64,000 nt of DNA from Longimicrobiales bacterium. Its GTDB lineage: Bacteria; Gemmatimonadota; Gemmatimonadetes; Longimicrobiales; Gaopeijiaceae. The notes beneath the pieces are model-generated. The model did not search any database. It was not told the DNA's origin and saw only the letters and a list, made by a program, of their open reading frames with translations. The stretch is taken from positions 640,001 through 704,000 of the forward strand of contig CBDBCF010000001.1 of assembly GCA_965202985.1 (NCBI GenBank), written 5' to 3'. This document shows, in pieces, positions 39,928 to 62,316 of the stretch (its first letter is position 1; each line of letters opens with the position of its first letter). Made by a program: the position numbers and the translations under genes.

Positions 39928-40742
39928 CGCGGTCTCGACGACAGGACGTACATCAGGATCGACCCGGCCACAGCCACGTTGAGGGAGTCCACCCCGGGAG
40001 CAAGGGGCACGGCCACGGCGCGACCCAACCGCCGGTAGCGATCCGACACGCCCCGAACCTCGTTGCCCACCACCAGCACCCAGCTCGCGCCGGGGGTGTC
40101 CGCAACGTCCGGGAGCGCGTCCCGGGGCAGGGCCAAGGGGGCGCTCGCAGCGTCCGGGGGAACGCCCGCGGGGTCCGCGTAGAGCAGGCGCGGCGGGGAC
40201 GCCGAGGCCGACTCTTCCCCAGCCGGAAAACCCGGGGGCACGACCAGGAGAGGCACGCGGAAGACTCCGCCGGCCGACGCCCGGACCACCTTGGGGTTCC
40301 ACGGGTCCACCGTTCCCTGGCCGATCGCGACTCCGTCGAGGCCGAAGGCCCAGGCGCTCCGCACCAGCGTCCCCAAGTTGCCCGGCCCCTGGACGGCATC
40401 GGCAACCATGTATCGCCCCGGAAGGAGAGGTCGCGCCTCCAGTGGCGGCGTCTTGACGACGGCCAGCGCGGGGCGCGGCGACTCGGTAGCGCAGATGTCC
40501 ACAACTTCGTCGTCCGGTGCAAGCACTGTGGTCACCCCCCTCTCGCGACCCAGCGACGCGATCTCCCAGCCCTCCGGGGTCCCCGCGTACTCCTCCCCGA
40601 TCGCCGTCCACGCGACCTGGACCGGCGAGCGCAGCGCCTCCGCGATCACTTTCGGACCCTCCACCACCGTCATCCGCTTCCGCGCCCGGTGACGGCTTCG
40701 GGCCAACAGCTCGACCGTCCTCCGCTTAGCTTTGCTGATCAT
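39924..40742 (-). CDS. TrmH/SpoU family RNA methyltransferase
   Basis: VEG, PGNLGT, KVVRASAG, GNE..G and SLNVAVA motifs. Confidence 0.9.
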   Translation of the reverse strand: MISKAKRRTVELLARSRHRARKRMTVVEGPKVIAEALRSPVQVAWTAIGEEYAGTPEGWEIASLGRERGVTTVLAPDDEVVDICATESPRPALAVVKTPPLEARPLLPGRYMVADAVQGPGNLGTLVRSAWAFGLDGVAIGQGTVDPWNPKVVRASAGGVFRVPLLVVPPGFPAGEESASASPPRLLYADPAGVPPDAASAPLALPRDALPDVADTPGASWVLVVGNEVRGVSDRYRRLGRAVAVPLAPGVDSLNVAVAGSILMYVLSSRPR

Positions 40743-41580
40743 GCGCCGTTCGTCGCCTCCACCGGAGCCGCCGGTCGGGGACCGCCCGCCCGTCGTTCTC
40801 ACCGTGGCCGGGAGCGACAGCGGCGGCGGGGCCGGGATCCAGGCGGACCTCAAGACGTTCCATCAATGGGGCGTCTACGGCGTCTCCGCAGTCACGGCGG
40901 TGACGGCCCAGAACACCCGCGGGGTCCAGAAGGTACACGCGACGCCGCCCGCTGTGGTCGCGGCGCAGATCGGGAGCGTCGCCGACGACTTCGCCGTGCG
41001 GGCGGTCAAGACCGGGATGCTCGCCGGCGCCGACACGGTGCGGGCGGTGGTGGAGGCGCTCCGAGAGCACGACCTGGGCCGCTACGTGCTCGACCCGGTG
41101 ATGGTCGCGACCAGCGGGGACCGTCTGCTCGACCCCGATGCAGTGGACGCGGTTCGGGACGAGCTCCTTCCCTTGGCGGCGCTGATTGCCCCCAATTGGC
41201 CCGAGGCCGTGGTTCTGACCGGCGTCGAGGAGGACAGCGTCGAGGGCATGGAGCGGGCCGCACGGCTGCTAGTGGACGCCGGTGCCGGGGCAGCCCTCGT
41301 CAAGGGTGGGCATCTGGCCGGCGAGGAAGTGGTGGACGTGCTGTGGGACGGTCGGTCGATCCGCGTCCTGCGCGGGCGGCGGATCGCCACCCGCCACACT
41401 CACGGGACGGGGTGTTCGTTGAGCGCTGCGATTGCGGCCGGGCTGGCGTTGGGTCGCCCGGTGCCGAAGGCGGCGGAGGTCGCGGTCGCGTGGGTTCGCC
41501 GGGCAATTGCGGAAGCGCCGGGGCTGGGCCAGGGAAGCGGCCCAATCAACCACTTCGCGACGGCGCCCTCGTCCGTCTGA
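40741..41580 (+). CDS. thiD: Hydroxymethylpyrimidine/phosphomethylpyrimidine kinase
   Basis: AGSDSGGGAGIQADLK, TAQNT, KTGML, DPVM, KGGH and HGTGC motifs. Confidence 0.95.
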   Translation: MRRSSPPPEPPVGDRPPVVLTVAGSDSGGGAGIQADLKTFHQWGVYGVSAVTAVTAQNTRGVQKVHATPPAVVAAQIGSVADDFAVRAVKTGMLAGADTVRAVVEALREHDLGRYVLDPVMVATSGDRLLDPDAVDAVRDELLPLAALIAPNWPEAVVLTGVEEDSVEGMERAARLLVDAGAGAALVKGGHLAGEEVVDVLWDGRSIRVLRGRRIATRHTHGTGCSLSAAIAAGLALGRPVPKAAEVAVAWVRRAIAEAPGLGQGSGPINHFATAPSSV

Positions 41581-41588
41581 CCTGGCAC

Positions 41589-44500
41589 CTACTCGAAGAC
41601 GATCCTGCCCGAGAGGCCGATGCGGCGTTCCGGAGGCTGGACGCCGCTGGCGACGTGCTCGCCGAACAGGTCCATCATCAAGCGCAGGCCGGGCGACCGG
41701 CTCCCGGAGGACTCGGTAAGTTGCCCCGTGGTCTCGCCGCCCAGCAACGACCAGCGGGTCCCCACGTTCACCCGATGGCCCGTCGGTCCCTCGCGGCTCC
41801 ACCGGCCGAACGGCTTGACCTGGGCACCGCCGGACAGCAGCACGCCGTAGCCGACCTCCATCGCCACGCGGTCGGGCGCCCAGCCCGGCGCGCCCGTGGC
41901 CGCCAGCACGCCGGAGCCTGCCGGGAGGCCCGGGCCTGCCTGCGAGCCGGCGGTCGAGCCGCCGTCAGCGCCCGACGCTCCCTGCGCCGACGGGTCGCCC
42001 TGGTTGTGAGCGAGTCCCGCGCCTGCTGGGACGTTCACGCCGACTGGCCGCACGGCGCCGACCGGCGCGCTGAAGCCGGCCGCGCCCGCGGTCCGCCACA
42101 CGTCCGCGCCCCCTTGCCACAGCGTCCGCGCGCCACCCCCGGCGTCGCCCCACGTCGGCTCGACCGAGAACGACAGCCCGCCCTCGCTCTCGCCCCCGCC
42201 GCCCGGCTGCAACCTCAGCGAGAACCCCGCGCCCCAGTCCTTGAAGTCGCGCTCCTGGTGCACCAGCAGCGCACGACCCCGCGCCGTCATGCTGAACCCG
42301 CTGGCTTGGTGCGCCAACCCCACCTCGGCGCCCGCCTCCGCGCCCATCCCCGTCTCCGCGTCGCCACCGTCGAAGCGACCCCCCACCTCGAACCGCGTCC
42401 GCATCGCCAGCCCGCCGCCCAACGACCACTGGCCGCCGATCTCCGGCGCCAGTCGCACGCGCTGCGCGTCCGCCGTCACGCCCGCCAGCCCCGTCACTTC
42501 GTCCGACAAGATGCGCACCGCGAAAGCGTCCGCCTTCAGCGCCAACCCGCCGGTCAGCTCCTGACGCACGCCCAGCGCGCCCATGCGCATCTCCAAGTCC
42601 GTGTCGAAACGGCCGCCCGCCGACTCATCGAGCGTCGCGTCGCCCCGGCCCGCGCCCGCCAAGCCCCACACCCCGAACCCGCCGCCGGACGACCAGTGCA
42701 GGTAGGGGTACAGGCTGGTCAGGCGAGCGTCGACCGATCCCGCGCCGTTGACGTCGCTGTCGAAGCCGGCCTCCATGTCGCTGCGCGAGCCCGCAAGGCC
42801 CATGAGGAACCCGGAGCCGAACCGGTAGTCCAGCCCCAGGTAGGCGGAGCGCGTGCGGCCGTCCATGGCGAAGCCGTCTCGGGGACGGCCCTCGAACTCG
42901 CCCAGGTTCGCCTGGCCCCACACCGTCCAGCCCGACCGGACAGCTTCGCTGGCTGCCGAGCCGGCCGAGCCGCCGAACGACAGCTGGAACGAACTCTGCG
43001 AGCGCAGGCCGCGGGCGTCGACGGGGTTGAACGTCAGGCCGCCCCGGTCGGCGCGAGCGCCGCGCTCGGCATCGGCTTGCTGTTGGCCCTGGTAGGAGCC
43101 GCCCATGCCGCCTGCGCCGCCCGCTGTCGGTTGACCGAATGCACCGCCCCGGCCGTCGCCGAACAGCAGCGCGGCCAAGTCGACAGTCCCGCCGGCCGCG
43201 TCCGGCGAGCCGGGGTGCGCGATCTGCAGCCCCAGCAGGCCCGTCGCGCCCCGCACCAGCGACTCGAGGCCGCAATGGCCCGAGCCGCCTGCATCGCCGT
43301 TGCCGCCACCTGCGGCCTGGCCCGAGCCGCCCGCGGCGGCATTGCCCTGGCCGTCGTCGGCTTGACCGTGCACTGCGTTCGCAACGTCGGCGAAGCCGCC
43401 GGCGCCGAATGCATCCGAGCCGCCCGTGCCGCAGGCCAGCGAGCGCCCGCCGAGCTGCACGTGCGACCGGCCCAGCGCGCCCGACGACCCCAGCCCCAAC
43501 CGCCCGCCGATCGCCTCCACCGTCTCCGTGCCCAGCGACCTGCCGAACGCCGCCAGCGTCAGCTCCAACGCACGCGCACGCTCCGACCGCGACGCCTCCA
43601 CCGTCACACGCACCTGCTGCTGAGCCGACAACCCGCCCGGATCGCTCGCGCGTACCGTCACCACAGCCTCGCCGATCGCCCGCGGCGCGATCGACAACCG
43701 GCCCGCGCCCGTCACCGTCGCAGCCGCCACGGCCGGCGACGACGATTCGACCGCGTACGCCAGCGCGTCGCCGTCCGGGTCCCGGAAGTACTGCCCCAAC
43801 TCCTCTTCCACCGCGGCGCCGTACGCCTCGAGCGTCTTCGGCGACATCGCGCCCACCGCCTCCGGACCCTCGTTCACGTCCAGCAACGTCACCGTCACGC
43901 CCGCCTCGGCCGTCAGTCCGCCCGCGTCCGTCGCCCGCACCGTCAGCGCGAACGTCGGCGGACCCGCCTCGTAGTCCTCGCCGCTCCCCACGTACCGCAC
44001 CTCGCCCGTCCGAGCGTCCACCTCGAACCGCGCGGCATCGCCTTCGGCCAAGCTGTACGCCGGCGCGTCGCCGCGGTCCGGGTCCGTCGCTTCGACCACG
44101 CCCAGCGTCAGCGGTCCGGCAGCGTTCTCCGCCAGCTCGAAAGCGTATGCGGAGTCCGCGAACGCCGGCGCCTCGTTCACGTCCACCAGCGCGACCGTCG
44201 CGGCGACCCGCGCCGCCAGTCCCTCGCCGTCGGTCGCCACCACCTCGAACTCCCAGGACGCCGGGCCCGCCTCGTAGTCCTCGCCCTCGCCCGCGTACCG
44301 CACCTCGCCCGTAACAGCGTCCACCTCGAAGAGCGCCGCGCCTTCGCCCGACAGGCTGTACACGAGCGTGTCCGCTCGGTCCGGGTCCGCAGCCTCGACC
44401 ATCCCCAGCACCAACGGTCCGGCGACGTTCTCCTCGAACTCCCACTCGTAGACCTCCGCAGCGAACACGGGCGCCTCGTTACGGTCCAGCAGCGCCACCG

Positions 44501-47500
44501 TCACCCGCGCAGACGCCGCGACGCCGCCGCGGTCCGTCGCACGGACCTCGAGCGCCCAGCTCTCCGGGCCCGTCTCCGCGTCCTCGCCTTCGCCCACGTA
44601 CCGCAACTCGCCCGTAACAGCGTCCACCTCGAACTGCTCGGCGGCGCCTTCGGCCAAGCTGTACGTCGGCGGGTCGTCCCGGTCCGGGTCCGTCGCCCGC
44701 ACCGCGCCCAGCACCAACGGTCCCGCAGCGTTCTCCGCCAGCTCGAACGCATATGCGCTGTCGACGAACGACGGCGCCTCGTTCACGTCCGCAACCATCA
44801 CCGTCGCCGTCGTCCGCGCCGTACGGCCCAGCAAGTCCGTCGCCGTCGCCTCCAAACGCCACATGCCTATGCTCGTCTCGTAGTCCTCGCCTCCGCCAAC
44901 ATACCGCAACTCGCCCGTGCCAGCGTCCAGCTCGAACCGGTCGGCGTCGCCCGCCACCAGCGCGTAAGTCAGGGTGTCGCCCTCGTCCAAGTCCACAGCC
45001 TCCATCACCCCCAGAACCAGCGGACCCGCAGCGTCCTCCGCCAGCTCGAACCGCCAACCGTCCTCGACGAACGACGGCGCCTCGTCGTTCTCGTTCACGA
45101 CCTTCACCGTCACCTTCGCCACCGTCTCGAGCTGCTCGCCCTCGCCCACGCCGTCCGTCACCGCCACCACCAGCATCACGTACTCCGAACGCTGCTCCGC
45201 GTCCTCGCCACCGCCAACGTAAGTCACCACGCCGCTCGACACGTCCACCTCGAACAGCCCCTCGCCTCCGCTCTCCAACCCGTAGCGCATCTCGGCGCCC
45301 AACGGACTCGTCGCAACCACCTCGCCCAGCGGCAGCGGGCCCGCAACGTTCTCCGCCAACTCGAACTCGTACTCCAACCGACCGAACACCGGGTCCAGGC
45401 TGCCCGCGCCGTTCACCGCGTGGTCCGCCAAGTCCGTCACCGCGTGCGCGCCCAGGTCCAGCGCCGCGAGCGTCGTGCCGCCCGCGATCCGCAGCGCGCC
45501 CGCCGACTCCGCCAGCGCGTCCGCCGGGATGCTGATCCCGTCCGGGTCCCGGTCCGCAGGACGGACCACGTACTCGAACGCCAGCACCGCAGTGCCCGAA
45601 CCCGACACGTAGACCGCGTGCCGCGTCGTCCCGCCCACGTCGATCGCCAACCGCGCCGCAGCCGTGTTCGCAGCCGTCGCGGCCGTCATCGACGCCGCCA
45701 GCGCCGGCGACGACGACGCGCCCGCCACATCGACCGGCCGGCTGAACGTCACCTCGACACGGATCACGCCGCCAGCGCCGTACAGTCCCGTCGCCACAGG
45801 CTCGCTCGTCACCGCCAAGCCCACCACCACCGGCGCGACCTCGACCGTACCGTCCACCTTGTCGGCAGCAGCAGCCGCAATCGCTTGGCCGCCCAGCGCC
45901 AGCGTCGCCGGACGAACGCCGTCCGCCGTGTTCACGATCGCACCGCCGTTCAGCGTCAACGCAGCAGCTGCAACGCCGACGCCGTCCGCGTCCGCGTCCA
46001 CCCCGCCCGTACCGCTGCCGCCGCTGCCCGCGCCCTGCACACGGTACGCGAACGACAACGTCGCCGTGCCGCTGCCGCCCGCGTAGCTCGCCTGACGCGC
46101 AACCGTCCCCACCGTCAGCGCCAGCTGCGGCGCGCCCGTCACCGTCACCGCACGGTCGAACGTGACCTGAACCTCGATCCGCTCGCCCAGCCCGTAGGTG
46201 TCCCCGCTCTCCGGCGCGCTCGACACCGCAACGCCGCTCACCGTCGCGCCCGCCAGCGTACCGTCCACCTTGTGGCCCGATGCCGCGCTCAACGCATGGC
46301 TGCCCAGCCCCAACGCCGCCGCCGTCGATCCGTCGCGGGCGTCCGCGATCGCGCCGCTGTTCAGCGCCAGCGCGCTCGCGCCGACCTCGATCCCGTCCGC
46401 GTCCGCGTCCGCAGCCACCACCGTGTAGCGGAACGTCAGCGCCCGCGTGCCCGTCCCGCTCGCGTAGTCCGCCTGCCGCGTCTGCGCACCCACCGTCAGC
46501 GCCACCCGAGGCGTGCCCGTCACCGTCACCCGACGGTTGAACGTCACCTGCACCTCGATCGACTCGTCGCGGCCGTACGTCGTCGCCACCGCAGGCGAAC
46601 TCGTCAGCGACACGCCCGACACCGCCGCCGCCGTGAAAGTACCGCCCGCAACCTTGTGGCCCGCGCTGTTCGTTACCGTGTGCGTCCCCAGCCCCAGAAC
46701 CGCGTCCACCGTCCCGCCCGCCACGTCGATCGTCCCGCCGTTCAGCGCCAACGCGCTCGCCGCGATGCTGATGCCGTCCGCGTCCGCGTCCGCAGTCACC
46801 ACCACGTAACGGAACACCAGCGACGCCGTGCCGCTGCCCGAAGCGTAGCCCGCCTGCTTCGTCGTGCTGCCGATCCCCAACGCCAGCTGCGGCGTGCCCG
46901 TCACGTCCACCGCCTTGTTGAACACCACCGTCGCAACCACCGTGTCGCCGCGCTCGAACGTGTCGCCGATCGGCGGCGACGCGATCGACACCGCGCTCAC
47001 GCCCGGCGGGCCCTGAGTGCCGTCCACCCGATGGCTGCCGCTGTTCGATATCGCATGGCCGCCCAACCCCAGGCTCGCAGCCTCGTTCGCGTCGCGAGCG
47101 TCCGCGATCGCGCCCCCGTTCAGCGACAACGCGCTCGCGCCGATGCTCAACCCGTTCGCGTCCGCGTCCGCTGCAACCACCGTGTAGGCGAACGACAGCA
47201 CGCGGCCGTCCGTCGTCGTCACGTACGACGCCTGCCGCGTCTGCGTACCGATCGTCAGCGCCAGCTCGGGCGAGCCCGTCACCGCCACGTTGCGGTTGAA
47301 CGTCACCTCGACACCGATCTCCTCGCTCAACCCGTACGTGCCCCCGCCCGCCGGACTGCTCGTTATCGTCACGCCCGACACCGACGCCGCCGTGAACGTA
47401 CCGCCCGCTACGCGCAGTGCGCCGTCGTCGCCGATCGCATGATGCTCCAGGCTCAGCAAGGCGTCCGTCGTACCGCCCGCAACGTCGATCGTACCGCCGT

Positions 47501-50500
47501 TCAACGCCAACGCGCTCGCGCCGATGCTCAACCCGTCCGCGTCCGCGTCCGCCGTCGCCACCACGTACCGGAACACCAACGCCGCCGTGCCCGTCCCCGA
47601 CGCATACGCAGCCTGACGCGTCTGCGAACCAATCCCCAGCGCCAGCCGCGGCCCGCCCGTCACGTCCACCGCCTTGTTGAATACAACCATCGCAACCACC
47701 GTGTCGCCGCGCTCGAACGTGCCGCCCGGCGCCGCCGCCACCGTCAACCCCGCGACACCCGGCGGACCCAGCCCGCCGTTCACCTTGTGCGAAGCGTCGT
47801 TCGTCACCGCGCTCGAACCCAGCCCCAGCGACGCGGCCGCAGCGCCCGGACGCACGTCGGCGATCGTCCCGCCGTTCAGCGTCAGCGCGCCCGCCGCGAT
47901 GCTCAACCCGTCCGCGTCCACGTCCGATGGTCGAACCGCGTAGCCGAACACCAGCGTGTCCGCCTTGCTCGAAGCCGACTCCCAGCTCGCCTGCCTGGTC
48001 GTAGTCCCGATCGTCAGCGCCAAGCGCGGCGCGCCCGTCACCGCCACCGGTCGCCCGAACGCCACCTTCACCTCGATCGACTCGCCCAACTGGTACGTCT
48101 GACCGCTCGCCGGAGCGCTCGATATCGTCACCGCAGTCACTGCCGGCACCGTGAACGTACTGCCAGACACCTTGTGGCCGCCGCTGTTCGTCACCACCAC
48201 GCCCGCGCCCAGCCCCAACGTCGCGTCCAGCGTCCCGCCAGCCAGACGGATCGTCCCGCCGCTCAACGTCAGCGCGCTCGCTGCGATGCTCAATCCGTCC
48301 GCATCCGCGTCGCCCGACGCCACCACGTACCGGAACACCAGCGACGTCGTGCCCGAACCGCTCGCGTAGCTCGCCTGCCTGGTCGCGCTCCCGATCGTCA
48401 GTGCGAGCCGCGGCGTGCCCGTCACGTCCACCGCGCGGTTGAACTCCAGCTCGACCTCGATCGTCTCGCCACGCTCGAACACGTCGCCCACCACGGGAGA
48501 ATCGATCGTCAGCGACGTCACCCCCGGCGGTCCCTGGCTCCCGTCCACCTTGTGCGCAGCAGCGTTCGATATCGCGTTCGAACCCAGTCCCAACGTCGCA
48601 GCCGTCGTGCCGCCCACCAGCACGATCGTCCCGCCGTTCAGCGTCAGCGCGCTCGCTGCGACGCCGATCCCCGTCGAATCCGCGTCCGCAGCAACCACCA
48701 CGTAGCGGAACACCAGCGTCCGCGTACCGCTCCCGCTCGCGTAGCTCGCCTGACGCGTCAGCGTGTCGATCGACAACGCCAGCTGCGGCGCCCCCGTCAC
48801 CGCCACCAAACGCTCGAACTCGACCTCCACCTCGATCGCCTCCGTGCGTCCGTACGTGCTGTCGCTCGCCGGCGCGCTCAATATCGCCACGCCGCTCACC
48901 GCCGGCGCCACCTCCTTCGTCCCGTCGACCTGGTACGCCACCGCGTCCGCGAAGTTCCACGGAACCAGCGACAGCCGAGCGTCCGTCGCCGTCCCCGTCG
49001 CTCGAATCGTCGCGCCGCCCGGCAACGTCAGAGCGTTCGCTCCGATGCTGATCCCCGTCGAGTCCGCGTCCGCCGCAACCACCGTGTAGCAGAACACCAA
49101 GATGTTGCCGCTCGTTACCGCGTCGCACTGCGCAGCGCTCCGCGTCTGCGCACCGATCCCCAAAGCCAGTCGCGGCGTGCCCGCCACCGTCACGCCCGTG
49201 TTGAACCCCACGCCCACCCGTATCTCGTCCCCAAGTCCGAACACGCTGTCCGTGCTCGCGTAAGAAATCCCGCTGTTCGTCGCCGACATGAAGAACACGC
49301 TCGTCACGTACGGCACGGCGCCCGAAACCTTGTGCGCCAAAGCGTTCGAAAACACGTGCGACCCCAACGCCAGGTCCGCCGCGTCCGACCGTTGCCGACT
49401 GTCGCCGATCGTGTCCGACGCGCTCACCGCCAAAGCGCCCGCGCCCACGCTGATCCCGTCCGCGTCCGCGTCCGTCGCCTGTACCACGTACCGGAACGTC
49501 ACACGCGTGAACGTCGCGTCCCTGCGGTTGTACTCCGCCTGACGCGTCGAGTCGCCGACCTCCAACGCCAGACGCGGCGTCCCCCCCACGTACACGCCCC
49601 GCACGAACTCCACCTCCACCTCGATCGCCTCGCCCCCCAAGTACGTGTCCCCAACCGCCGGACTGCTCGTTATCCTCAACCCCTTCACCACCGGCGCCGT
49701 CGCCGTGTTGCCCGCAACCTTGTGCGCCGCGCTGTTCGTTATCGCATGCGCGCCCAGACCCAACACCGCGTCCGTCGTCGTCCCCATCCGCCGAATCGTG
49801 GACCCGGACGGAGTCTCCAATGCGCTCGCGCCGATGCTGATCCCGTCCGCGTCCACTTGCTGCTGCGACACCGTGTACTCGAACTCCAACGACGTCGTGC
49901 CCGAACCCCTCCGGTACCACGCGTTACGCAAGCTCGACCCGACCCCGACACGCACCCGCGGCGTGCCCGTCACCGTCACCGCAGCGTTGAACTCCACCGT
50001 CACGACCACCACGTCGCCCAACTCGAACGTGCTGTCCGCCGGAGCATCGCCAATCGACACCCCCGTCACCACCGGACGGTCGCCCGCAACCTTGTGCGCC
50101 CCAGCGTTCGCGATCGCATGAGTGCCCAGTCCCAGCTCCGCCGTCACCGTCCCGCCCGCCTTGTTGATCGTCCCGCTGTTCAGCCCCAACGCGCTCGCTG
50201 CGATGCTCAACCCGTCCGCGTCCGCGTCCGTCGCTTGAACCACGTACCGGAACGTCAGCGAATCCGTCCCCGTCCCGCCCACGTAGCCCGCCTGCCGCGT
50301 CGCCGCTCCGATCCCCAACGCCACCTGCGGCGTCCCCACAACGTCCACCGCCTCGCTGAACTTCACCCACACCTCGATCCGGTGGCCCACCCCGTACGTG
50401 CTGTCCGAACCCGTCACGCTCGCCAAACCCGCGCCCGCCACCACCGGCACGCCCTGCAAACCATTCACCTTGTGCGCAGCAGCGTTCGACACCGCGTGCG

Positions 50501-52076
50501 CGCCCAGCGACAAGTCCGCCCGCTCCGTGCCCCCGACGCGCGTGATCGGAGTCGCGTAGTTGCTGAATGCGTTCGCCGGGATGCTGATCCCGTCCGCGTC
50601 CATGTCCGCACGCGTCACCGTGTATCGGAAGAACACGTCGTCCGCGTCCTTCGAGTACCAGCCCGCCGCCCGAACGTTGTCCCCGATCTCCAGGTTCAGC
50701 GTCATGTTGCCCAGAAAGTTCGGCGTCACCACCGCACGGTCGAACTGAACCCGCACGTTGACGTTGTCCCCCGCAGCGTACGTCGAGTCCGTCCCCGCTC
50801 CGCTCAAGAACGTCACCGCCGATATCCTCGGCACGATCAGCCCGCCGTTCACCTTGTGCGCACCAGCGTTCGTGACCGCGTGACTGCCGAGCGACAGCGT
50901 CGCGTCCACCGTCGTGCCCGCGTTCCTGATCGTCGCGCCGGACGGGACCGCCAGAGCGCTCGCGCCGATGCTGATCCCGTCCGTGTCTTCGTCCGCCGCC
51001 ACCACAGCGTACTCGAACACCAGCGAGTCCGTGCCCGTCCCGCTCGCGTAGTTCGCCTGCCTGGTCTGCGTGCCGATCCCTAAAGCCAGCTGCGGCGTGC
51101 CCGTCACGTCCACGTTCCCGCTGAACACCACCGCCACACGAATCCGCTCCGCCCGACCGTAAGTGCTGTCCGCAGCTACCGGCGTGCTCGCCACCGCCAC
51201 ACCGGTCACGGTAGCCGGTGGAATACCCACCACCTTGTGCGCCGCGGCGTTCGTGATCGCATGGCTGCCCAGACCCAGGATCGCGTTCTTCGTGCCGAGC
51301 CGGATCGTCCCGCCGTTCAGGGCCAGCGCGCTCGCGCCGATGCTGATCCCGTCCGCGTCCGAGTCCGCCGCCACCACCACGTACCGGAACACCAGCGACG
51401 CCGAACCCGTCCCGCTCGCGTAGTTCGCCTGCCGCGTCGAGTCGCCCACCGTCAACGCCAGCTGCGGCGTGCCCGTCACCGCCACCGTCGAGTCGAACGC
51501 CACCGTCACCGCAATCGTATCCCCAGTATCGTACGTGTTGTCGGCGCCCGCACTGCTGCTGATCGTCACACCCGTCACCTTGGGCAACCCCAGGGCGCCG
51601 TCCACCTTGTGCGCCGCCGCGTTCGTGATCGTATTGCCGCTCAGGCTAGCGTTAATAGTCAATCCAGATTGGAAGTTGTCAAGATCATTAGCCAGCGCGT
51701 TCGCGCCGATGCTGATCCCGTTCGCGTCCGCGTCCGTCGCCACCACGTGGTACCAAAACTCCAACCAGGTGAGCGGGAAACCACTGCGAGGCGGGTTTCC
51801 CGATGCGCAAGAAGCCCCAGCACAGGCGCTTCTGGTCGTCGCCCCGATCGTCAGGCCCAACGACGCTGTATTGTGGTTATGGCTCCAGTCGGCGCCGACG
51901 TTCAACCATATCCTTACCTTGATGGTGTCGCCCGCCACGTACGTGTTGTCCGCACCCGCCGAGCTGACGATCTTCAAGCTGTCCACGTTGCTTTGGGCGC
52001 TCAGCGGCGCCGGTGCCGCGATTCCGAACGCCGCCAGCAGGCCGAGGGCCGCGAGCGCGGTTCTGGCTACCGGCAT
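41589..52076 (-). CDS. Giant (3495 aa) autotransporter-like adhesin: signal peptide, 17 Ig-like repeats, 5 cadherin + 1 cadherin-like domains, C-terminal beta-barrel
   Basis: Signal peptide ending in LSA-Q; ~125-aa repeats with DADADG; cadherin motifs (ELAEN, DPD, DYE, D.NEAP); helix then barrel ending in IVFE. The true start may lie upstream of the poly-C tract. Confidence 0.9.
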   Translation of the reverse strand: MPVARTALAALGLLAAFGIAAPAPLSAQSNVDSLKIVSSAGADNTYVAGDTIKVRIWLNVGADWSHNHNTASLGLTIGATTRSACAGASCASGNPPRSGFPLTWLEFWYHVVATDADANGISIGANALANDLDNFQSGLTINASLSGNTITNAAAHKVDGALGLPKVTGVTISSSAGADNTYDTGDTIAVTVAFDSTVAVTGTPQLALTVGDSTRQANYASGTGSASLVFRYVVVAADSDADGISIGASALALNGGTIRLGTKNAILGLGSHAITNAAAHKVVGIPPATVTGVAVASTPVAADSTYGRAERIRVAVVFSGNVDVTGTPQLALGIGTQTRQANYASGTGTDSLVFEYAVVAADEDTDGISIGASALAVPSGATIRNAGTTVDATLSLGSHAVTNAGAHKVNGGLIVPRISAVTFLSGAGTDSTYAAGDNVNVRVQFDRAVVTPNFLGNMTLNLEIGDNVRAAGWYSKDADDVFFRYTVTRADMDADGISIPANAFSNYATPITRVGGTERADLSLGAHAVSNAAAHKVNGLQGVPVVAGAGLASVTGSDSTYGVGHRIEVWVKFSEAVDVVGTPQVALGIGAATRQAGYVGGTGTDSLTFRYVVQATDADADGLSIAASALGLNSGTINKAGGTVTAELGLGTHAIANAGAHKVAGDRPVVTGVSIGDAPADSTFELGDVVVVTVEFNAAVTVTGTPRVRVGVGSSLRNAWYRRGSGTTSLEFEYTVSQQQVDADGISIGASALETPSGSTIRRMGTTTDAVLGLGAHAITNSAAHKVAGNTATAPVVKGLRITSSPAVGDTYLGGEAIEVEVEFVRGVYVGGTPRLALEVGDSTRQAEYNRRDATFTRVTFRYVVQATDADADGISVGAGALAVSASDTIGDSRQRSDAADLALGSHVFSNALAHKVSGAVPYVTSVFFMSATNSGISYASTDSVFGLGDEIRVGVGFNTGVTVAGTPRLALGIGAQTRSAAQCDAVTSGNILVFCYTVVAADADSTGISIGANALTLPGGATIRATGTATDARLSLVPWNFADAVAYQVDGTKEVAPAVSGVAILSAPASDSTYGRTEAIEVEVEFERLVAVTGAPQLALSIDTLTRQASYASGSGTRTLVFRYVVVAADADSTGIGVAASALTLNGGTIVLVGGTTAATLGLGSNAISNAAAHKVDGSQGPPGVTSLTIDSPVVGDVFERGETIEVELEFNRAVDVTGTPRLALTIGSATRQASYASGSGTTSLVFRYVVASGDADADGLSIAASALTLSGGTIRLAGGTLDATLGLGAGVVVTNSGGHKVSGSTFTVPAVTAVTISSAPASGQTYQLGESIEVKVAFGRPVAVTGAPRLALTIGTTTRQASWESASSKADTLVFGYAVRPSDVDADGLSIAAGALTLNGGTIADVRPGAAAASLGLGSSAVTNDASHKVNGGLGPPGVAGLTVAAAPGGTFERGDTVVAMVVFNKAVDVTGGPRLALGIGSQTRQAAYASGTGTAALVFRYVVATADADADGLSIGASALALNGGTIDVAGGTTDALLSLEHHAIGDDGALRVAGGTFTAASVSGVTITSSPAGGGTYGLSEEIGVEVTFNRNVAVTGSPELALTIGTQTRQASYVTTTDGRVLSFAYTVVAADADANGLSIGASALSLNGGAIADARDANEAASLGLGGHAISNSGSHRVDGTQGPPGVSAVSIASPPIGDTFERGDTVVATVVFNKAVDVTGTPQLALGIGSTTKQAGYASGSGTASLVFRYVVVTADADADGISIAASALALNGGTIDVAGGTVDAVLGLGTHTVTNSAGHKVAGGTFTAAAVSGVSLTSSPAVATTYGRDESIEVQVTFNRRVTVTGTPRVALTVGAQTRQADYASGTGTRALTFRYTVVAADADADGIEVGASALALNSGAIADARDGSTAAALGLGSHALSAASGHKVDGTLAGATVSGVAVSSAPESGDTYGLGERIEVQVTFDRAVTVTGAPQLALTVGTVARQASYAGGSGTATLSFAYRVQGAGSGGSGTGGVDADADGVGVAAAALTLNGGAIVNTADGVRPATLALGGQAIAAAAADKVDGTVEVAPVVVGLAVTSEPVATGLYGAGGVIRVEVTFSRPVDVAGASSSPALAASMTAATAANTAAARLAIDVGGTTRHAVYVSGSGTAVLAFEYVVRPADRDPDGISIPADALAESAGALRIAGGTTLAALDLGAHAVTDLADHAVNGAGSLDPVFGRLEYEFELAENVAGPLPLGEVVATSPLGAEMRYGLESGGEGLFEVDVSSGVVTYVGGGEDAEQRSEYVMLVVAVTDGVGEGEQLETVAKVTVKVVNENDEAPSFVEDGWRFELAEDAAGPLVLGVMEAVDLDEGDTLTYALVAGDADRFELDAGTGELRYVGGGEDYETSIGMWRLEATATDLLGRTARTTATVMVADVNEAPSFVDSAYAFELAENAAGPLVLGAVRATDPDRDDPPTYSLAEGAAEQFEVDAVTGELRYVGEGEDAETGPESWALEVRATDRGGVAASARVTVALLDRNEAPVFAAEVYEWEFEENVAGPLVLGMVEAADPDRADTLVYSLSGEGAALFEVDAVTGEVRYAGEGEDYEAGPASWEFEVVATDGEGLAARVAATVALVDVNEAPAFADSAYAFELAENAAGPLTLGVVEATDPDRGDAPAYSLAEGDAARFEVDARTGEVRYVGSGEDYEAGPPTFALTVRATDAGGLTAEAGVTVTLLDVNEGPEAVGAMSPKTLEAYGAAVEEELGQYFRDPDGDALAYAVESSSPAVAAATVTGAGRLSIAPRAIGEAVVTVRASDPGGLSAQQQVRVTVEASRSERARALELTLAAFGRSLGTETVEAIGGRLGLGSSGALGRSHVQLGGRSLACGTGGSDAFGAGGFADVANAVHGQADDGQGNAAAGGSGQAAGGGNGDAGGSGHCGLESLVRGATGLLGLQIAHPGSPDAAGGTVDLAALLFGDGRGGAFGQPTAGGAGGMGGSYQGQQQADAERGARADRGGLTFNPVDARGLRSQSSFQLSFGGSAGSAASEAVRSGWTVWGQANLGEFEGRPRDGFAMDGRTRSAYLGLDYRFGSGFLMGLAGSRSDMEAGFDSDVNGAGSVDARLTSLYPYLHWSSGGGFGVWGLAGAGRGDATLDESAGGRFDTDLEMRMGALGVRQELTGGLALKADAFAVRILSDEVTGLAGVTADAQRVRLAPEIGGQWSLGGGLAMRTRFEVGGRFDGGDAETGMGAEAGAEVGLAHQASGFSMTARGRALLVHQERDFKDWGAGFSLRLQPGGGGESEGGLSFSVEPTWGDAGGGARTLWQGGADVWRTAGAAGFSAPVGAVRPVGVNVPAGAGLAHNQGDPSAQGASGADGGSTAGSQAGPGLPAGSGVLAATGAPGWAPDRVAMEVGYGVLLSGGAQVKPFGRWSREGPTGHRVNVGTRWSLLGGETTGQLTESSGSRSPGLRLMMDLFGEHVASGVQPPERRIGLSGRIVFE
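43860..45400 (-). repeat. 5 tandem cadherin-domain repeats (~300 bp)
   Basis: F...Y.FELAEN.AGPL.LG...A.DPD...FEVDA.TGE.RY.G.GED.E...D.NEAP occurs 5 times. Confidence 0.9.
45409..51989 (-). repeat. 17 degenerate ~375-bp tandem repeats encoding Ig-like modules
   Basis: Consensus TY..G..I.V.V.F...V.VTG.P.LAL.IG..TRQA.YASGSGT..L.F.Y.V...DADADG.SI.ASAL.LNGG.I...HKV.G, counted by eye. Confidence 0.9.
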
Positions 52077-52116
52077 CGCGCGGACCCAGAACGCACGGGC
52101 CGGGCCGGTCGAAAAA

Positions 52117-52133
52117 GGGGGGGGGGGGGGGGG
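52117..52133 (-). promoter_or_regulatory. 17-nt homopolymer (poly-C on the coding strand); candidate phase-variation tract
   Basis: G17 on the + strand between the ATGs at 52138/52144/52162 and the ATG at 52076. Confidence 0.7.
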
Positions 52134-52240
52134 CTCATGTTCATCTGGGGTGTCCTCAGCATCTGGGTGTCCTCAGCGTCCAAAGCGGTATCTGTCCTAT
52201 GCCTAACCTAACGTAAACTGGGGAAGATTCGGCGTTCACT

Positions 52241-53023
52241 TCAACGGCGGCGGCGTACCGGCGGGAGATCGTCGCCCTGGTCCGCTCGGGACGGTCGCCG
52301 GAGGCCGTGGCCCGCGCCGGACGGCCCGGCCAGCACGCGCGCTCCGTCGGGCACCCGAAAGACGAACAGGTCGGGCTTGATCTGCGGCGCAAAGTCCAGG
52401 TCCGCCAGGTCCATGGTGCGGACGCTTCCGTTCTCCTGGTGCACTTCCAGCCGGCGGATCACGTGCTCCTCCCGGTCGAGCCAGACTCTGGCCCGGTGAA
52501 AGGCGGCCCGGCCTTGGGGCTCGAGCTCCACGATGCGGCAGTTCCGACCCGCCACGACCTCCGATCCTCCGTCCGAGGCACGGTACTTCGCGCCCGGGTC
52601 CTCCAGAAACGCCCGAAACACGTCGTAGCGCCCCGGGGCCGTCGCCGCCGGGTACCGCACCACTTGGTCCTCTTCCACGCTGGGGTAGTAGACCCAGACG
52701 TGTTCGCCGTCGGACACCACCATGTCGCCATCGGGATCGTCGAAGCGCATGGAGAACAGATTCGGGCGCCGTTGGCATACGCGGCCGGCGCTCTCGACCC
52801 GGCGCCCCAAAAGACGCACTTCGACGACTTGGCGGAACGTCGCGCACACGGCGTCGACGCCTCGGTAGCGCGCGGCGGCGTCTTCCATGGCCCGAACGGC
52901 GTCGTTCGCGCCGGATCCGGTGCCGCCGGGCGGCTGGGCGCGCGCAAGGCCGGGGAGCACGGTCGCCACGCAGAGCGCGACGCAACCGGTCGCCGCCCGG
53001 AGCGCACGTCTCAACTGGGGCAT
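52241..53023 (-). CDS. lolA: Outer-membrane lipoprotein carrier protein LolA
   Basis: Signal peptide; ATFRQ, RPNLFSM, VSDG..VWVY and FVFRVP motifs; directly downstream of ftsK. Confidence 0.85.
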   Translation of the reverse strand: MPQLRRALRAATGCVALCVATVLPGLARAQPPGGTGSGANDAVRAMEDAAARYRGVDAVCATFRQVVEVRLLGRRVESAGRVCQRRPNLFSMRFDDPDGDMVVSDGEHVWVYYPSVEEDQVVRYPAATAPGRYDVFRAFLEDPGAKYRASDGGSEVVAGRNCRIVELEPQGRAAFHRARVWLDREEHVIRRLEVHQENGSVRTMDLADLDFAPQIKPDLFVFRVPDGARVLAGPSGAGHGLRRPSRADQGDDLPPVRRRR

Positions 53024-55458
53024 ATCTCGTCCAGGCCGGCGGGACCGACCAGCACTTCCCGCGGCTTGGAACCGTCGGGGGGGCCCAGCACGCCGGCTTC
53101 GTGCAGCTGGTCCACGATCCGCGCGGCCCGCCCGTAGCCGATCCGTAGCCGGCGCTGGAGCAGAGACGTGGAGCCGGCGCCCTGCTGGATGCAGGCGTGG
53201 GCGGCCTCCCGGAAGAGGTCGTCCCAGTCTCCCTGGATCGTGCCCTCTTCGCCTTCTTCGTCGCCGCCCTCCGCCGCCCGCACGGCCTCCAGGATGTCGT
53301 CTTCGGCAAGGGCAACCCGGGCCTTGATCGCTTCCAGCGTGTCGGACTGCTCGCGATACCAGCCCATGAGGGCCTCGGTCTCCTCGGTGGAGATGAAGGC
53401 GCCCTGCATACGGACGGGTTCGCTATGGCCGGGCGGCAGAAAGAGCATGTCGCCGTGGCCCAGCAGCGAGTCGGCGCCGTTCTGGTCCAGGATCGTGCGC
53501 GAATCGGTCTTGGAGGCCACGCGAAAGGCGATCCGGCAGGGAAAGTTGGCCTTGATCAGGCCGGTGATGACGTTGACGCTGGGCCGTTGCGTGGCCACCA
53601 GCAAGTGGATGCCGATCGCGCGCGCCTTCTGGGCCAGCTGGGTCAGCGGCTTCTCGACTTCGGCCTGGACGGACATCATCAGGTCCGCCAGCTCGTCCAA
53701 GACGACGACCACATAGGGAAGCGGTCCTTCTTCGTACACCCAGCGCTCCGGGTCGCCCTCGGGTCCGGCCGGCTCGCTGCGTCGGAGCACGACGCCGTTC
53801 TCGACCCGCTGGTTGAACTCCTTCAGCGAGCGGACGCCGTTGGCGCTCAACAGGGCGTAGCGCCGCTCCATCTCCAGCACGGCCCACTTCAGCACGCCCG
53901 CGGCGTCCTTCGGGTCGGTCACGACGGGGTGGCGAAGGTGGGGAAGGTCGGCGTAGGCGGACAGCTCCACCATCTTGGGGTCGATCAGCAGCAGGCGCAG
54001 GCGGTCCGGGCCGTTCCGGTACACCAAGCTGGTGATGATCGTGTTGAGGCAGACGGACTTGCCCGAGCCGGTGGCGCCGGCGATCAGGCCGTGCGGCATC
54101 TTGCCCAGGTCGGTGACGAAGGGATGGCCGGTCAGGTCCTTGCCCAGCGCCAGCGGCAGCACGCCCCCGGCGCGGGCGAAGGCGGGCGCTTCCAGGATCT
54201 CCCGCAGCCGCACCATCTCCGGGCGCGGGTTGGGGATCTCGACGCCCACGGCCCCCTTGCCGGGGATCGGCGCCACGATGCGAACGCTCGTGGCCTTCAT
54301 GGCCAGGGCCAAGTCCGCGTCCAGGTTCGCGATCCGGCTGACCTTGACGCCGGCCGCGGGCACGACCTCGAACTGGGTCACCGCCGGCCCGGTCGTCCGA
54401 CCCCCGATCTCGGACTGGATGTTGAAGGTGCCCAGGGTCTCGACCAGGACCTCGCCAAGCCGGTCCAGCTCGGCCTCCATGTCCTGACGGTTCTTGGGTT
54501 CCGGCGGCGCCAGCAGATCGATGGCGGGCAAAGGATGGTCGCCGGGGGCCGGCTCGTCTTCCGGGAAGGAGTCCGGGTTCGAGACGGACTCCTCGGCCGG
54601 CGGCAGATACCCGCTGGCCGGGGGCTCGGCAGGCCCCGCTTCCGTCCAGGGCGCCGCGCTGGGCGACAGCGACTCCTGTCCCCCGGACTCCGAAGCGGCC
54701 GGCTCCGACGCCCAGGGCTCGGGTTCGCCGGCCAGCTCGTGTTCCGGGAGCGTCTTTCTTTCCTTTCGGCGCCCAGCGGCAGGCCTTCTTCGTTCTTTTA
54801 AGCTGGCGAACGCCGATCCCGCGGCAGAGCGTGCCGAGCGAGCGCCGCGGCTCAATCCGCGGGCGGACGCCGCGATGCCGGCAACGGCCAGCCCTGCCGG
54901 ATTGAAGCCGAAAGCGGCCACCGACAGGGCGACCCAGCCGGCGCCTGCCAGGAACATCACGCCAAACCATCCGACCACGCCGCACAGGGGCATCCCCAGG
55001 AGCCGGGCGCCAAGGTACCCGGTCGCCTCCACGCGCCGAGAGGCCGGCGCGCACGCCTCGACCGGCAACGGAGGGGCCAAGTAGGCCGTGAAGGGCAGCA
55101 GAAGCAGCAGCCCGCCCGTCAGGATCCAGGCCCGCTTCCGCAGTTCGGGCGATCCCCATCGGCCGAACGCCGCAGCAGCCGCCAGCAGACCGAGCGGGAC
55201 CGCCGCGGCCCCAAGTCCCAGCGCTCCCACGAGCGCGTCTCGAAGGGCTTGTCCGGCCCGCCCCAGCGGATTGCCCGGCGGCAGCAGACCCAGCGCGTCG
55301 AACGGGAACAGAGCCACGGCAACCAGAAACGCTGCAACCCCGGCTACGGCCGCGAACGCCCGGTCCGGCCCTCCTCCTCCGCGAGCCGCGGCGCCCTTTG
55401 CGTTCTTCCGTCGTCCGCCCGCGCGCGCGACGCCCTTGGTCGTCCGTCGCGACGCCAT
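53011..55458 (-). CDS. ftsK: DNA translocase FtsK
   Basis: N-terminal TMs; GATGSGKS, IDPK, DELADLM, ATQRPS and gamma-domain LQRRLRIGYGRAARI motifs. Confidence 0.96.
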   Translation of the reverse strand: MASRRTTKGVARAGGRRKNAKGAAARGGGGPDRAFAAVAGVAAFLVAVALFPFDALGLLPPGNPLGRAGQALRDALVGALGLGAAAVPLGLLAAAAAFGRWGSPELRKRAWILTGGLLLLLPFTAYLAPPLPVEACAPASRRVEATGYLGARLLGMPLCGVVGWFGVMFLAGAGWVALSVAAFGFNPAGLAVAGIAASARGLSRGARSARSAAGSAFASLKERRRPAAGRRKERKTLPEHELAGEPEPWASEPAASESGGQESLSPSAAPWTEAGPAEPPASGYLPPAEESVSNPDSFPEDEPAPGDHPLPAIDLLAPPEPKNRQDMEAELDRLGEVLVETLGTFNIQSEIGGRTTGPAVTQFEVVPAAGVKVSRIANLDADLALAMKATSVRIVAPIPGKGAVGVEIPNPRPEMVRLREILEAPAFARAGGVLPLALGKDLTGHPFVTDLGKMPHGLIAGATGSGKSVCLNTIITSLVYRNGPDRLRLLLIDPKMVELSAYADLPHLRHPVVTDPKDAAGVLKWAVLEMERRYALLSANGVRSLKEFNQRVENGVVLRRSEPAGPEGDPERWVYEEGPLPYVVVVLDELADLMMSVQAEVEKPLTQLAQKARAIGIHLLVATQRPSVNVITGLIKANFPCRIAFRVASKTDSRTILDQNGADSLLGHGDMLFLPPGHSEPVRMQGAFISTEETEALMGWYREQSDTLEAIKARVALAEDDILEAVRAAEGGDEEGEEGTIQGDWDDLFREAAHACIQQGAGSTSLLQRRLRIGYGRAARIVDQLHEAGVLGPPDGSKPREVLVGPAGLDEICPS

Positions 55459-58104: not shown

Positions 58105-58682
58105 CCGCCGACGCGGGACCCGCCGACCCGAGACAGATACTTGTCCTCGCGACGGTCGATCTTGAGCACGTCGCCCACGTCCACGAACAGGGGAACCTGG
58201 ACGACCGCGCCCGTCTCCAGCGACGCGGGCTTGGTGGCCCCTTGGGCGGTGTCGCCCTTGTAGCCCGGGTCGGTCTGGGCGACTTCGAGCTCGACGAACG
58301 CCGGCAGCTCCACGCTGATCACGTTGCCGTCGTGGACCAGCCCCTCGCACTCCATGTTCTCCTTCAAGTACTTCAACTGGCCCGCGCCCAGCATCTCGCG
58401 GCTGATGGGAATCATGTCCCACGTCTCCTGGTCCATGAAGTGGTACAGCTGGCCGTCGGTGTACGAATACGTGACCGGGCGGCGCTCCAGCCGGACGCTG
58501 GCAACCCGTTCGCCGGCCCGGAACGTGCGGTCCACGACCGCCCCGGAGAGCACGTTCTTGAGCTTGGTGCGCACGAAGGCGCCGCCCTTGCCGGGCTTGA
58601 CGTGCTGGAAGTAGGTGATCGTCCAGAGGTCGCCTTCGATCTCCAGCACCATGCCGTTGCGGAAGTCCGCGGTGGTCGCCAT
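58101..58682 (-). CDS. efp: Translation elongation factor P
   Basis: [16 protein letters not shown] and [14 protein letters not shown] motifs. Confidence 0.96.
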
Positions 58683-62079: not shown

Positions 62080-62316
62080 CTACCCGTTCGTCAGCCGACG
62101 GGGGGGGGTGCCCTCGTCCGTTCTGTCCTTCGGGGCCGACGACTGCTCTTCCAGCGGCACCTTGAGTTCGCCTTCGATCTCGCGAACCGAGGACTTGAAC
62201 TCGCGGATGCCCTTGCCCAGAGAGGTTCCGATCTCGGGGAGCCGCTTCGCCCCGAACAGGAGAAGGACGACGACGAAGATCAGGATCATTTCCCACATGC
62301 CGAAATTGAACGGCAT
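62080..62316 (-). CDS. tatA: Twin-arginine translocase subunit TatA
   Basis: LLLFGAKRLPEIG.SLGKGIREFK motif; AGGAGGT RBS. Confidence 0.95.
   Translation of the reverse strand: MPFNFGMWEMILIFVVVLLLFGAKRLPEIGTSLGKGIREFKSSVREIEGELKVPLEEQSSAPKDRTDEGTPPRRLTNG

Follow-up and report, generated by a model that had tools for sequence, protein, structure and literature searches.

In Neisseria meningitidis, NalP and AusI have a poly-C repeat in the coding region, and AutA and AutB have repeats right after the start codon (PMC5472700); an enrichment of repeats at the N-terminal end is a recognised signature (PMC3315296). In Gardnerella, nanH3 carries a poly-C run of C8-C14 (bioRxiv 10.1101/2020.09.16.300947). 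Campylobacter jejuni has a repertoire of poly-G runs, capA included, which are mainly G9-G10 in an organism lacking mismatch repair (PMC8355987), and in Haemophilus influenzae lic2A and lic1A several initiation codons in two frames precede the CAAT repeat (PMC3116884). In this study we analysed a window of 64,000 nucleotides (nt) from a Longimicrobiales bacterium of the Gemmatimonadota (assembly GCA_965202985.1, contig CBDBCF010000001.1, positions 640,001 to 704,000). It holds a run of 17 C residues (C17) ahead of a gene for a giant adhesin-like protein of 3,495 amino acids (aa), and we lean towards the view that this run, set in a leader that is probably translated, is a slipped-strand frameshift switch for the autotransporter-like adhesin.

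The locus is like the Neisseria genes in combining an autotransporter, a 5' slipped-strand repeat and a proposed frameshift ON/OFF logic, and the model of its barrel matches the NalP translocator. Unlike them, it has its run ahead of a whole native signal peptide that brings its own Met, it belongs to a set of ten paralogs of 3,500-5,000 aa, and its bearer is a sponge-associated Gemmatimonadota and not a pathogen. With nanH3 it shares a poly-C run close to the 5' end of a gene whose product is exported and an upstream alternative start missed by annotation. However, the nanH3 run follows the signal peptide, so that its out-of-frame lengths cannot be rescued, whereas ours precedes it; the runs are also longer here (C13-C31), and variation has been demonstrated in nanH3 only. 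As in C. jejuni, many G/C runs per genome sit on surface and methyltransferase genes and could give combinatorial phasotypes, but the median lengths are 18-21 nt, the mutS and mutL open reading frames (ORFs) are intact and the genome has 68% GC. As at lic2A and lic1A, more than two expression states could arise from the arrangement of start codons around the repeat; there the starts lie upstream of it, whereas here the second start lies downstream and would be reached by coupling. Finally, 15 of 30 family loci show TGATG or ATGA between a +1-frame leader and the adhesin start, as coupled gene pairs do (PMC10666635; PMC12548453), although those are fixed pairs and the overlap in our window is -10.

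The mechanism itself is a known one. What differs here is the run before a complete native signal peptide, its presence across a whole family of giant genes, the run length despite repair genes, and the host. Our literature search, outside which supplements and subscription papers lay, turned up neither phase variation driven by repeats in Gemmatimonadota of sponges nor a coupling switch under repeat control. Adhesion proteins of the cadherin type abound in sponge symbionts, and cadherins are enriched in sponge metagenome-assembled genomes (PMC8163846). If our reading is true, it would mean bet-hedging of the pathogen type in an uncultured marine symbiont, with runs twice the length of those in Campylobacter despite intact mismatch-repair genes. 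It might also matter in practice: short-read assemblies break at poly-C sites, and gene callers choose the start according to tract length.

The poly-C tract and its start codons

The adhesin gene is read from the minus strand (41589..52076), as are the tract, the start codons, the linker and the upstream ORF described in this section. The proposed switch occupies 52117..52133 (C17 on the coding strand, G17 on the forward strand), with AG before it and TTTTT after it. Three ATGs at 52162, 52144 and 52138 share one frame and all lie 5' of the run, and two of them follow a GAGGA, at 52170-52174 (7 nt ahead of ATG 52162) and at 52153-52157 (8 nt ahead of ATG 52144). The run, the three ATGs and the two GAGGA signals had been pointed out by a first-pass annotation of the window and were found again here. 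A feature absent from that annotation is that the two signals are copies of one another: a unit of Shine-Dalgarno sequence (SD, GAGGA, -5.6 kcal/mol) and ATG is tandemly duplicated at 52143..52177, the copies being 52143-52160 and 52161-52177. The paralog at C1:725948 likewise retains an SD with an ATG close by in its homologous upstream sequence. By comparison, the ATG at 52076 that opens the signal peptide, earlier described as having no evident SD, indeed reaches only -3.1 kcal/mol, no better than a random internal ATG.

Between the tract and this ATG lies a linker of 40 nt (52077..52116) in which the adhesin frame is open (FSTGPARAFWVRA); homologous linkers are present at seven other loci of this genome and a congener (G000 and G001, see below). 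Tract lengths of 12, 15, 18 and 21 give, in computed translation, a stop-free fusion of the leader to the 3,495-aa ORF, which bears out the earlier claim for C15 and C18 and extends it. Lengths of 13, 16 and 19 give a product of 87-89 aa. The assembled C17 yields the predicted 25-aa upstream ORF (52067..52144), which ends at TAG 52067-52069, 7 nt beyond the first base of ATG 52076, and so overlaps the adhesin start by 10 nt. This TAG derives from the rare Val codon GTA, which makes up 2.6% of internal Val codons and 10 of 106 in codons 2-8.

A promoter and terminator scan of 51900-52500 found none, and there was no sigma-70-like site around the run. The layout in which a run separates the -35 and -10 boxes, which we take to be the porA type, is accordingly not seen at this locus; it is seen at one locus of a congener (G003 L081). 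An Rfam search of 50000-54000 gave 0 matches. Two TTAGG units stand at 52202-52211, upstream of the SD, and in an assembled contig (run X4) this site is longer by two units and a 21-nt duplication, so the upstream region is repeat-variable as well.

Runs across the genome, the family and the genus

The window is G000:C1:640001-704000, G000 being its genome (3.86 Mb, two contigs, 68% GC) and G001, G002 and G003 its congeners; its FtsK has its best relatives mostly among Gemmatimonadota metagenome-assembled genomes. A genome-wide tract scan, a kind of check that the first-pass annotation had suggested, showed the numbers of G/C runs falling geometrically between 5 and 8 nt. There is none of 13-14 nt, and then 26 runs of 15-33 nt follow, at adhesin and methyltransferase genes among others, where ~0.00006 would be expected. 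The adhesin family has 16 loci in G000. Among the 15 with an intact 5' end, 10 carry C16-C28, one an in-frame G12 and four no repeat. The ten run-bearing paralogs encode 3,500-5,000 aa each, and products of the family as a whole span 3,500-13,000 aa. Family runs are always C on the coding strand, and the chance of a run is 0.0005 per locus.

Runs of at least 13 nt number 26 in G001, 6 in G002 and 45 in G003. With coordinates matched by hand, a C run stands at the gene start of the 11 best barrel matches of G001, of 1 of 7 in G002 and of 9 of 17 in G003, so that the congeners add 21 run-bearing adhesin loci. Median run lengths are 18-21 nt. The family-wide placement and the differences in length are directly seen: tracts range from C16 to C28 among the G000 paralogs, assembly error contributing some share of this. 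For tract lengths in orthologs, which had also been proposed as a check, the answer is mixed. The adhesin insertion of the window has no ortholog in G001-G003, but an N6-methyltransferase gene starts with poly-C in all four genomes (C18, C13, C26 and C13 at G000 C1:2443104, L038, L045 and L068). Poly-C also lies inside Eco57I-type genes (L034, L060, L075; Pfam N6_Mtase, Eco57I), and these methyltransferase genes are candidates for phase-variable methylomes.

In the wider family, the pattern of an ATG followed by poly-C occurs in 45 of 201 genomes, mostly at low copy number. Twenty such loci picked from 8 genomes of other genera, read by eye, include none ahead of the adhesin family of the window, and a pattern scan of metagenome contigs returned 6 chance matches and no adhesin. 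Loss of mismatch repair was considered as a source of the long runs and rejected, since the mutS and mutL ORFs are intact in 5/5 genomes tested; efp and rho are likewise present in 5/5.

Probable translation of the run

Thirty adhesin loci were compared, a further one (L016) being excluded by the hydrophobicity filter; the 31 gene-proximal runs were chosen by a hidden Markov model with stops masked, and a 32nd has another run downstream of it. An upstream ATG is found within 16 nt of the run in 17/30 loci and within 30 nt in 23/30, with chance values of 0.11 and 0.21. Counted by upstream cluster the enrichment is 12/25 (p 3e-6), or 12/22 with wider clustering over 250 nt (p 5e-7). From the run to the first repeat of the protein the adhesin frame is stop-free in all 31 cases, and the linkers contain 0 in-frame stops (444 codons), with 4 in the +1 frame (422 codons) and 11 in the +2 frame (433 codons). 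Because of the ATG enrichment and the constantly open adhesin frame, the run is most likely translated at the family loci, as far as such patterns can tell. In G000, an SD of -5.5 kcal/mol or better precedes the upstream ATG in 4 of 10 loci, and one of -4 or better precedes the downstream ATG in none of 10.

A number of observations weigh against this. At six of the ten G000 loci the upstream ATG is not preceded by a good SD, and the genome as a whole makes weak use of SDs (-4 kcal/mol or better at 48% of likely starts). In seven of 30 loci the 30 nt ahead of the run contain no ATG (GTG or TTG in some), and L016 has none within 60 nt upstream. Moreover, the signal-peptide Met is kept in 30/30 loci, codon periodicity is absent from the linker (GC by codon position 0.64/0.68/0.68, compared with 0.81/0.63/0.81 for the signal peptide) and 1-nt indels alter the in-frame peptide of one linker lineage. 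The last three would be expected if 52076 were a real start. Linker substitutions are few and mixed over the codon positions; an A-R-A-F motif in one lineage shows, by eye only, synonymous variation. We read the leader as having been recruited ahead of an older start, translated and loosely constrained.

Tract length within populations and habitat

Length was checked in assembled contigs from six sequencing runs (X1, X2, X3, X4, X5, X7) representing five distinct samples. No contig of these six bridges C17 at the window locus, and no within-population variation in length was seen, which leaves the proposed switch less secure. It also weakens the family comparison that paralogs are kin and that G000 and G001 sequence are both present in run X2, so that the family loci are not independent. 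On the other hand, contigs from the runs of two studies have G-runs at the equivalent position in paralogs, so the runs are not confined to one assembly.

Twelve runs contain part of the stretch and mostly bear the label sponge metagenome, five of these with shares of 0.29-0.51, and no RNA data set is listed among them; the bacterium likely dwells in sponges. The first-pass annotation had proposed a contingency locus for a giant adhesin in a probable symbiont. The family- and genus-wide runs and the habitat labels agree with this, but length variation among cells was not observed. In this sense a slippage-driven contingency locus on the giant adhesin of a probable symbiont, repeated across family and genus, is well supported by what the genomes predict.

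Proposed mechanism and alternative explanations

From here on we infer start usage, slippage switching and adhesion. Ribosomes would start at 52144 or 52162, and replication slippage would add or remove a C. At lengths of 15, 18 or 21 the full protein would be made, its signal peptide lengthened by a Pro-rich stretch (ON), elongation factor P being present. At 16 or 19, ribosomes would read the first ~200 nt of the gene in the wrong frame. Polarity through Rho, which might load at the C-rich run, would probably follow; judged by these computed frames, this third class is the likeliest to be truly OFF. At 17, where the leader would end 7 nt past the native ATG, the gene might be off or low. With ten runs on sister genes, cells would display different adhesin sets, and the family-wide runs are likely random switches by which the choice of predicted adhesins on the surface differs from cell to cell.

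The assembled length had been described as reading OFF. C17 is indeed out of frame as assembled, but OFF is not established, because 17 is the assembled length only and because the leader stop adjoins the native ATG, where re-initiation through coupling could sustain some expression. Typical coupled overlaps are -4 and -1 and efficiency drops with larger overlap (PMC10666635; PMC12548453); in E. coli coupling declines as the overlap grows, and one chloroplast pair functions at -10 (PMC12548453). The overlap in the window lies outside the -1/-4/-8 spacing of coupled pairs, which is found at 15/30 family loci. Partial coupling at -10 is possible, and so, by analogy, is another leak through slippage of tRNA-Pro, which slips +1 (~1%) and +2 on CCC-C beside a start codon (PMC4519876).

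Carried through the family, this leads to a reading that we regard as unlikely though worth weighing: in the C17 class the leader would stop on the native ATG, and re-initiation there would yield the protein with its normal signal peptide. This would be a working ON state, the fused form being a second ON and the third class OFF. In 24/30 loci the +1 frame meets its first stop between -2 and +7 relative to the native ATG (TGATG in 7, ATGA in 8, the 10-nt overlap in 9). At ordinary starts of G000 the value is 0.37-0.50, nearly all of it ATGA, with 0.04-0.05 at -2 and 0-0.03 at +7. By linker cluster, 11/14 stop at the native ATG (p 0.002-0.03). Four TGATG loci without the +7 stop, and TGA for TAG at +7 in L030, look like compensation, and ATGA and TGATG are typical coupling overlaps (PMC10666635; PMC12548453). 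However, when four G003 clusters sharing a signal peptide are merged the count becomes 8/11 (by hand p ~0.02 against 0.37 and 0.11 against 0.50), and the test is weak because after merging kin it is significant only against the lower null. ATGA follows whenever the second codon starts with A, as in 40-52% of ordinary starts; -10 is not an enriched coupling spacing, and coupling in E. coli falls with overlap (PMC12548453). In 4/30 loci the leader stop comes 26-110 nt too early, and the in-frame linker is the most stop-free of the three frames. As assembled, 12/23 loci read in the stop-at-ATG state, an excess that is not significant (chi-square p 0.12), and that only 7/23 read in frame also counts against the frameshift switch. 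That the length classes form a three-state switch of fused ON, coupled ON and OFF in at least 10 giant adhesin genes is a tentative suggestion. If true, it would be a translational-coupling rheostat under repeat control with thousands of surface combinations in a sponge symbiont; a coupling state would amount to repeat-driven setting of expression level, of which the literature search found no description.

It is also conceivable, and in our view rather improbable, that 52076 is an independent start and that frame is irrelevant, the variable C-rich leader tuning promoter spacing, folding, messenger RNA stability or Rho loading. The conserved downstream Met, the non-coding-like linker and its indels fit such action at the RNA level. 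Some runs are plainly of a promoter type (the spacer at G003 L081; before TTGACA at G000 C2:788096 and G001 L023), the run is always C on the messenger, rho genes are present, and Rho-utilization (rut) sites have more C than G (PMC12360218). But action on the RNA leaves both the ATG enrichment and the stop-free in-frame linker unexplained, there is no sigma-70-like site at 51900-52500, and the downstream start is without SD and predicted to be less accessible than the upstream one in 16/23 loci. Long homopolymers are difficult to call in sequencing. This difficulty is noted in the nanH3 preprint too (bioRxiv 10.1101/2020.09.16.300947), and the run might be real with 17 an assembly error for a fixed in-frame length, or the runs might be unselected microsatellites. 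The assembly has two contigs, the ten G000 loci split 3/2/5 over the three frames as noise would, and the paralog at C1:7023 is frameshifted farther downstream. We nevertheless give this explanation little credence: an error in length would leave the switch in place, the way the runs cluster at the starts of adhesin, methyltransferase and small-peptide genes in four genomes is anything but random, and a fixed gene might be expected to break the run with the synonymous codons CCG, CCA or CCT. The frameshift switch remains our preferred reading.

The adhesin gene and its surroundings

The predicted 3,495-aa surface protein has a signal-peptide-like start (a hydrophobic core and an LSA-Q cleavage-like motif, read from the sequence by eye), ~17 immunoglobulin-like (Ig-like) repeats of ~125 aa, cadherin domains and a C-terminal autotransporter-like beta-barrel. 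A profile of the repeat gave 17 matches in the ORF, and its ESM Atlas neighbours carry Big_5/Big_12 at a low share; Pfam Cadherin matches with E 3e-35. The model of the C-terminal domain is all-beta with a predicted local distance difference test (pLDDT) score of 75 and has extra strands after a long loop. Its top Foldseek matches are the beta-domains of BrkA, EspP and NalP (E 3e-6 to 5e-4), and its ESM Atlas neighbours belong to PF03797. PF03797 itself had no match in the Pfam search of the adhesin, a PDB sequence search with the C-terminus gave only matches of E 0.2, the NCBIfam search one sub-threshold match only, and a single-sequence fold of the C-terminus reached a pLDDT of only 32. In prediction the protein has what defines type Va autotransporters, namely a C-terminal barrel fold behind an N-terminal signal peptide and an Ig-like/cadherin passenger. 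From this domain content the product would be an adhesin. A plus-strand ORF at 40689-51083 (3,464 aa) is taken as an antisense shadow of the adhesin.

Upstream lies a lolA-like gene (52241..53023, minus strand). The adhesin stands behind lolA in G000 and is missing at the syntenic site in G001-G003. At the 5' border of the insertion lies a repeat of 66-77 nt (52241..52316) that recurs with 93-97% identity at C1:726061, C1:1459274 and C2:65399, near three other adhesin loci of G000. The barrel (42989 to 41592) is 95-97% identical among the ten G000 paralogs and 71-74% identical to the barrels of G001, a pattern that suggests homogenisation within the genome. An efp gene lies at 58317-58481, 6 kb from the tract, and a G9 run at 62100-62108 has no clear gene context.

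Other runs in the four genomes

Several further loci of the adhesin family deserve mention. The members at G000 C1:1804336-1843506 and C1:2579885-2613253 have 13,057 and 11,123 codons with 88 and 76 repeats, the former having an in-frame G12 near its start. One adhesin gene is preceded by a pair of C20 runs (G000 C1:2783197 and 2783521) with 324 nt between them, and both runs follow an ATG. At G003 L081 (C1:3025508) a G14 lies in a TTGACT-18 nt-TATAAT promoter ~140 nt ahead of another family member, and G13 would give a 17-nt spacing. Runs of C19, C33 and C26 stand immediately before TTGACA at G000 C2:788096, G001 L023 and G003 L048, ahead of genes of 3,385-4,734 aa with a distant form of the barrel.

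Outside the family, a ~440-aa ORF with a KFSGGRSS motif and no Pfam match occurs at G000 C1:1756566, L041 and L076, its ATG lying 13-14 nt before C17, C20 and C19, out of frame and in the same phase in three genomes. Three paralogs at G000 C1:236913, 844542 and 945326, which we take to be GDS-motif hydrolase-like, have C21-C24 at a shared internal position. Finally, G003 has at least 13 small genes (L049, L050, L065, L070-L074, L076, L077, L086 and a second type, L078) with a strong SD, an ATG and C14-C22, the run being a putative switch. They have a leader ending in RRPWAAPRL and a Cys-rich core, some are without a downstream Met, and they presumably resemble ribosomal peptide precursors.

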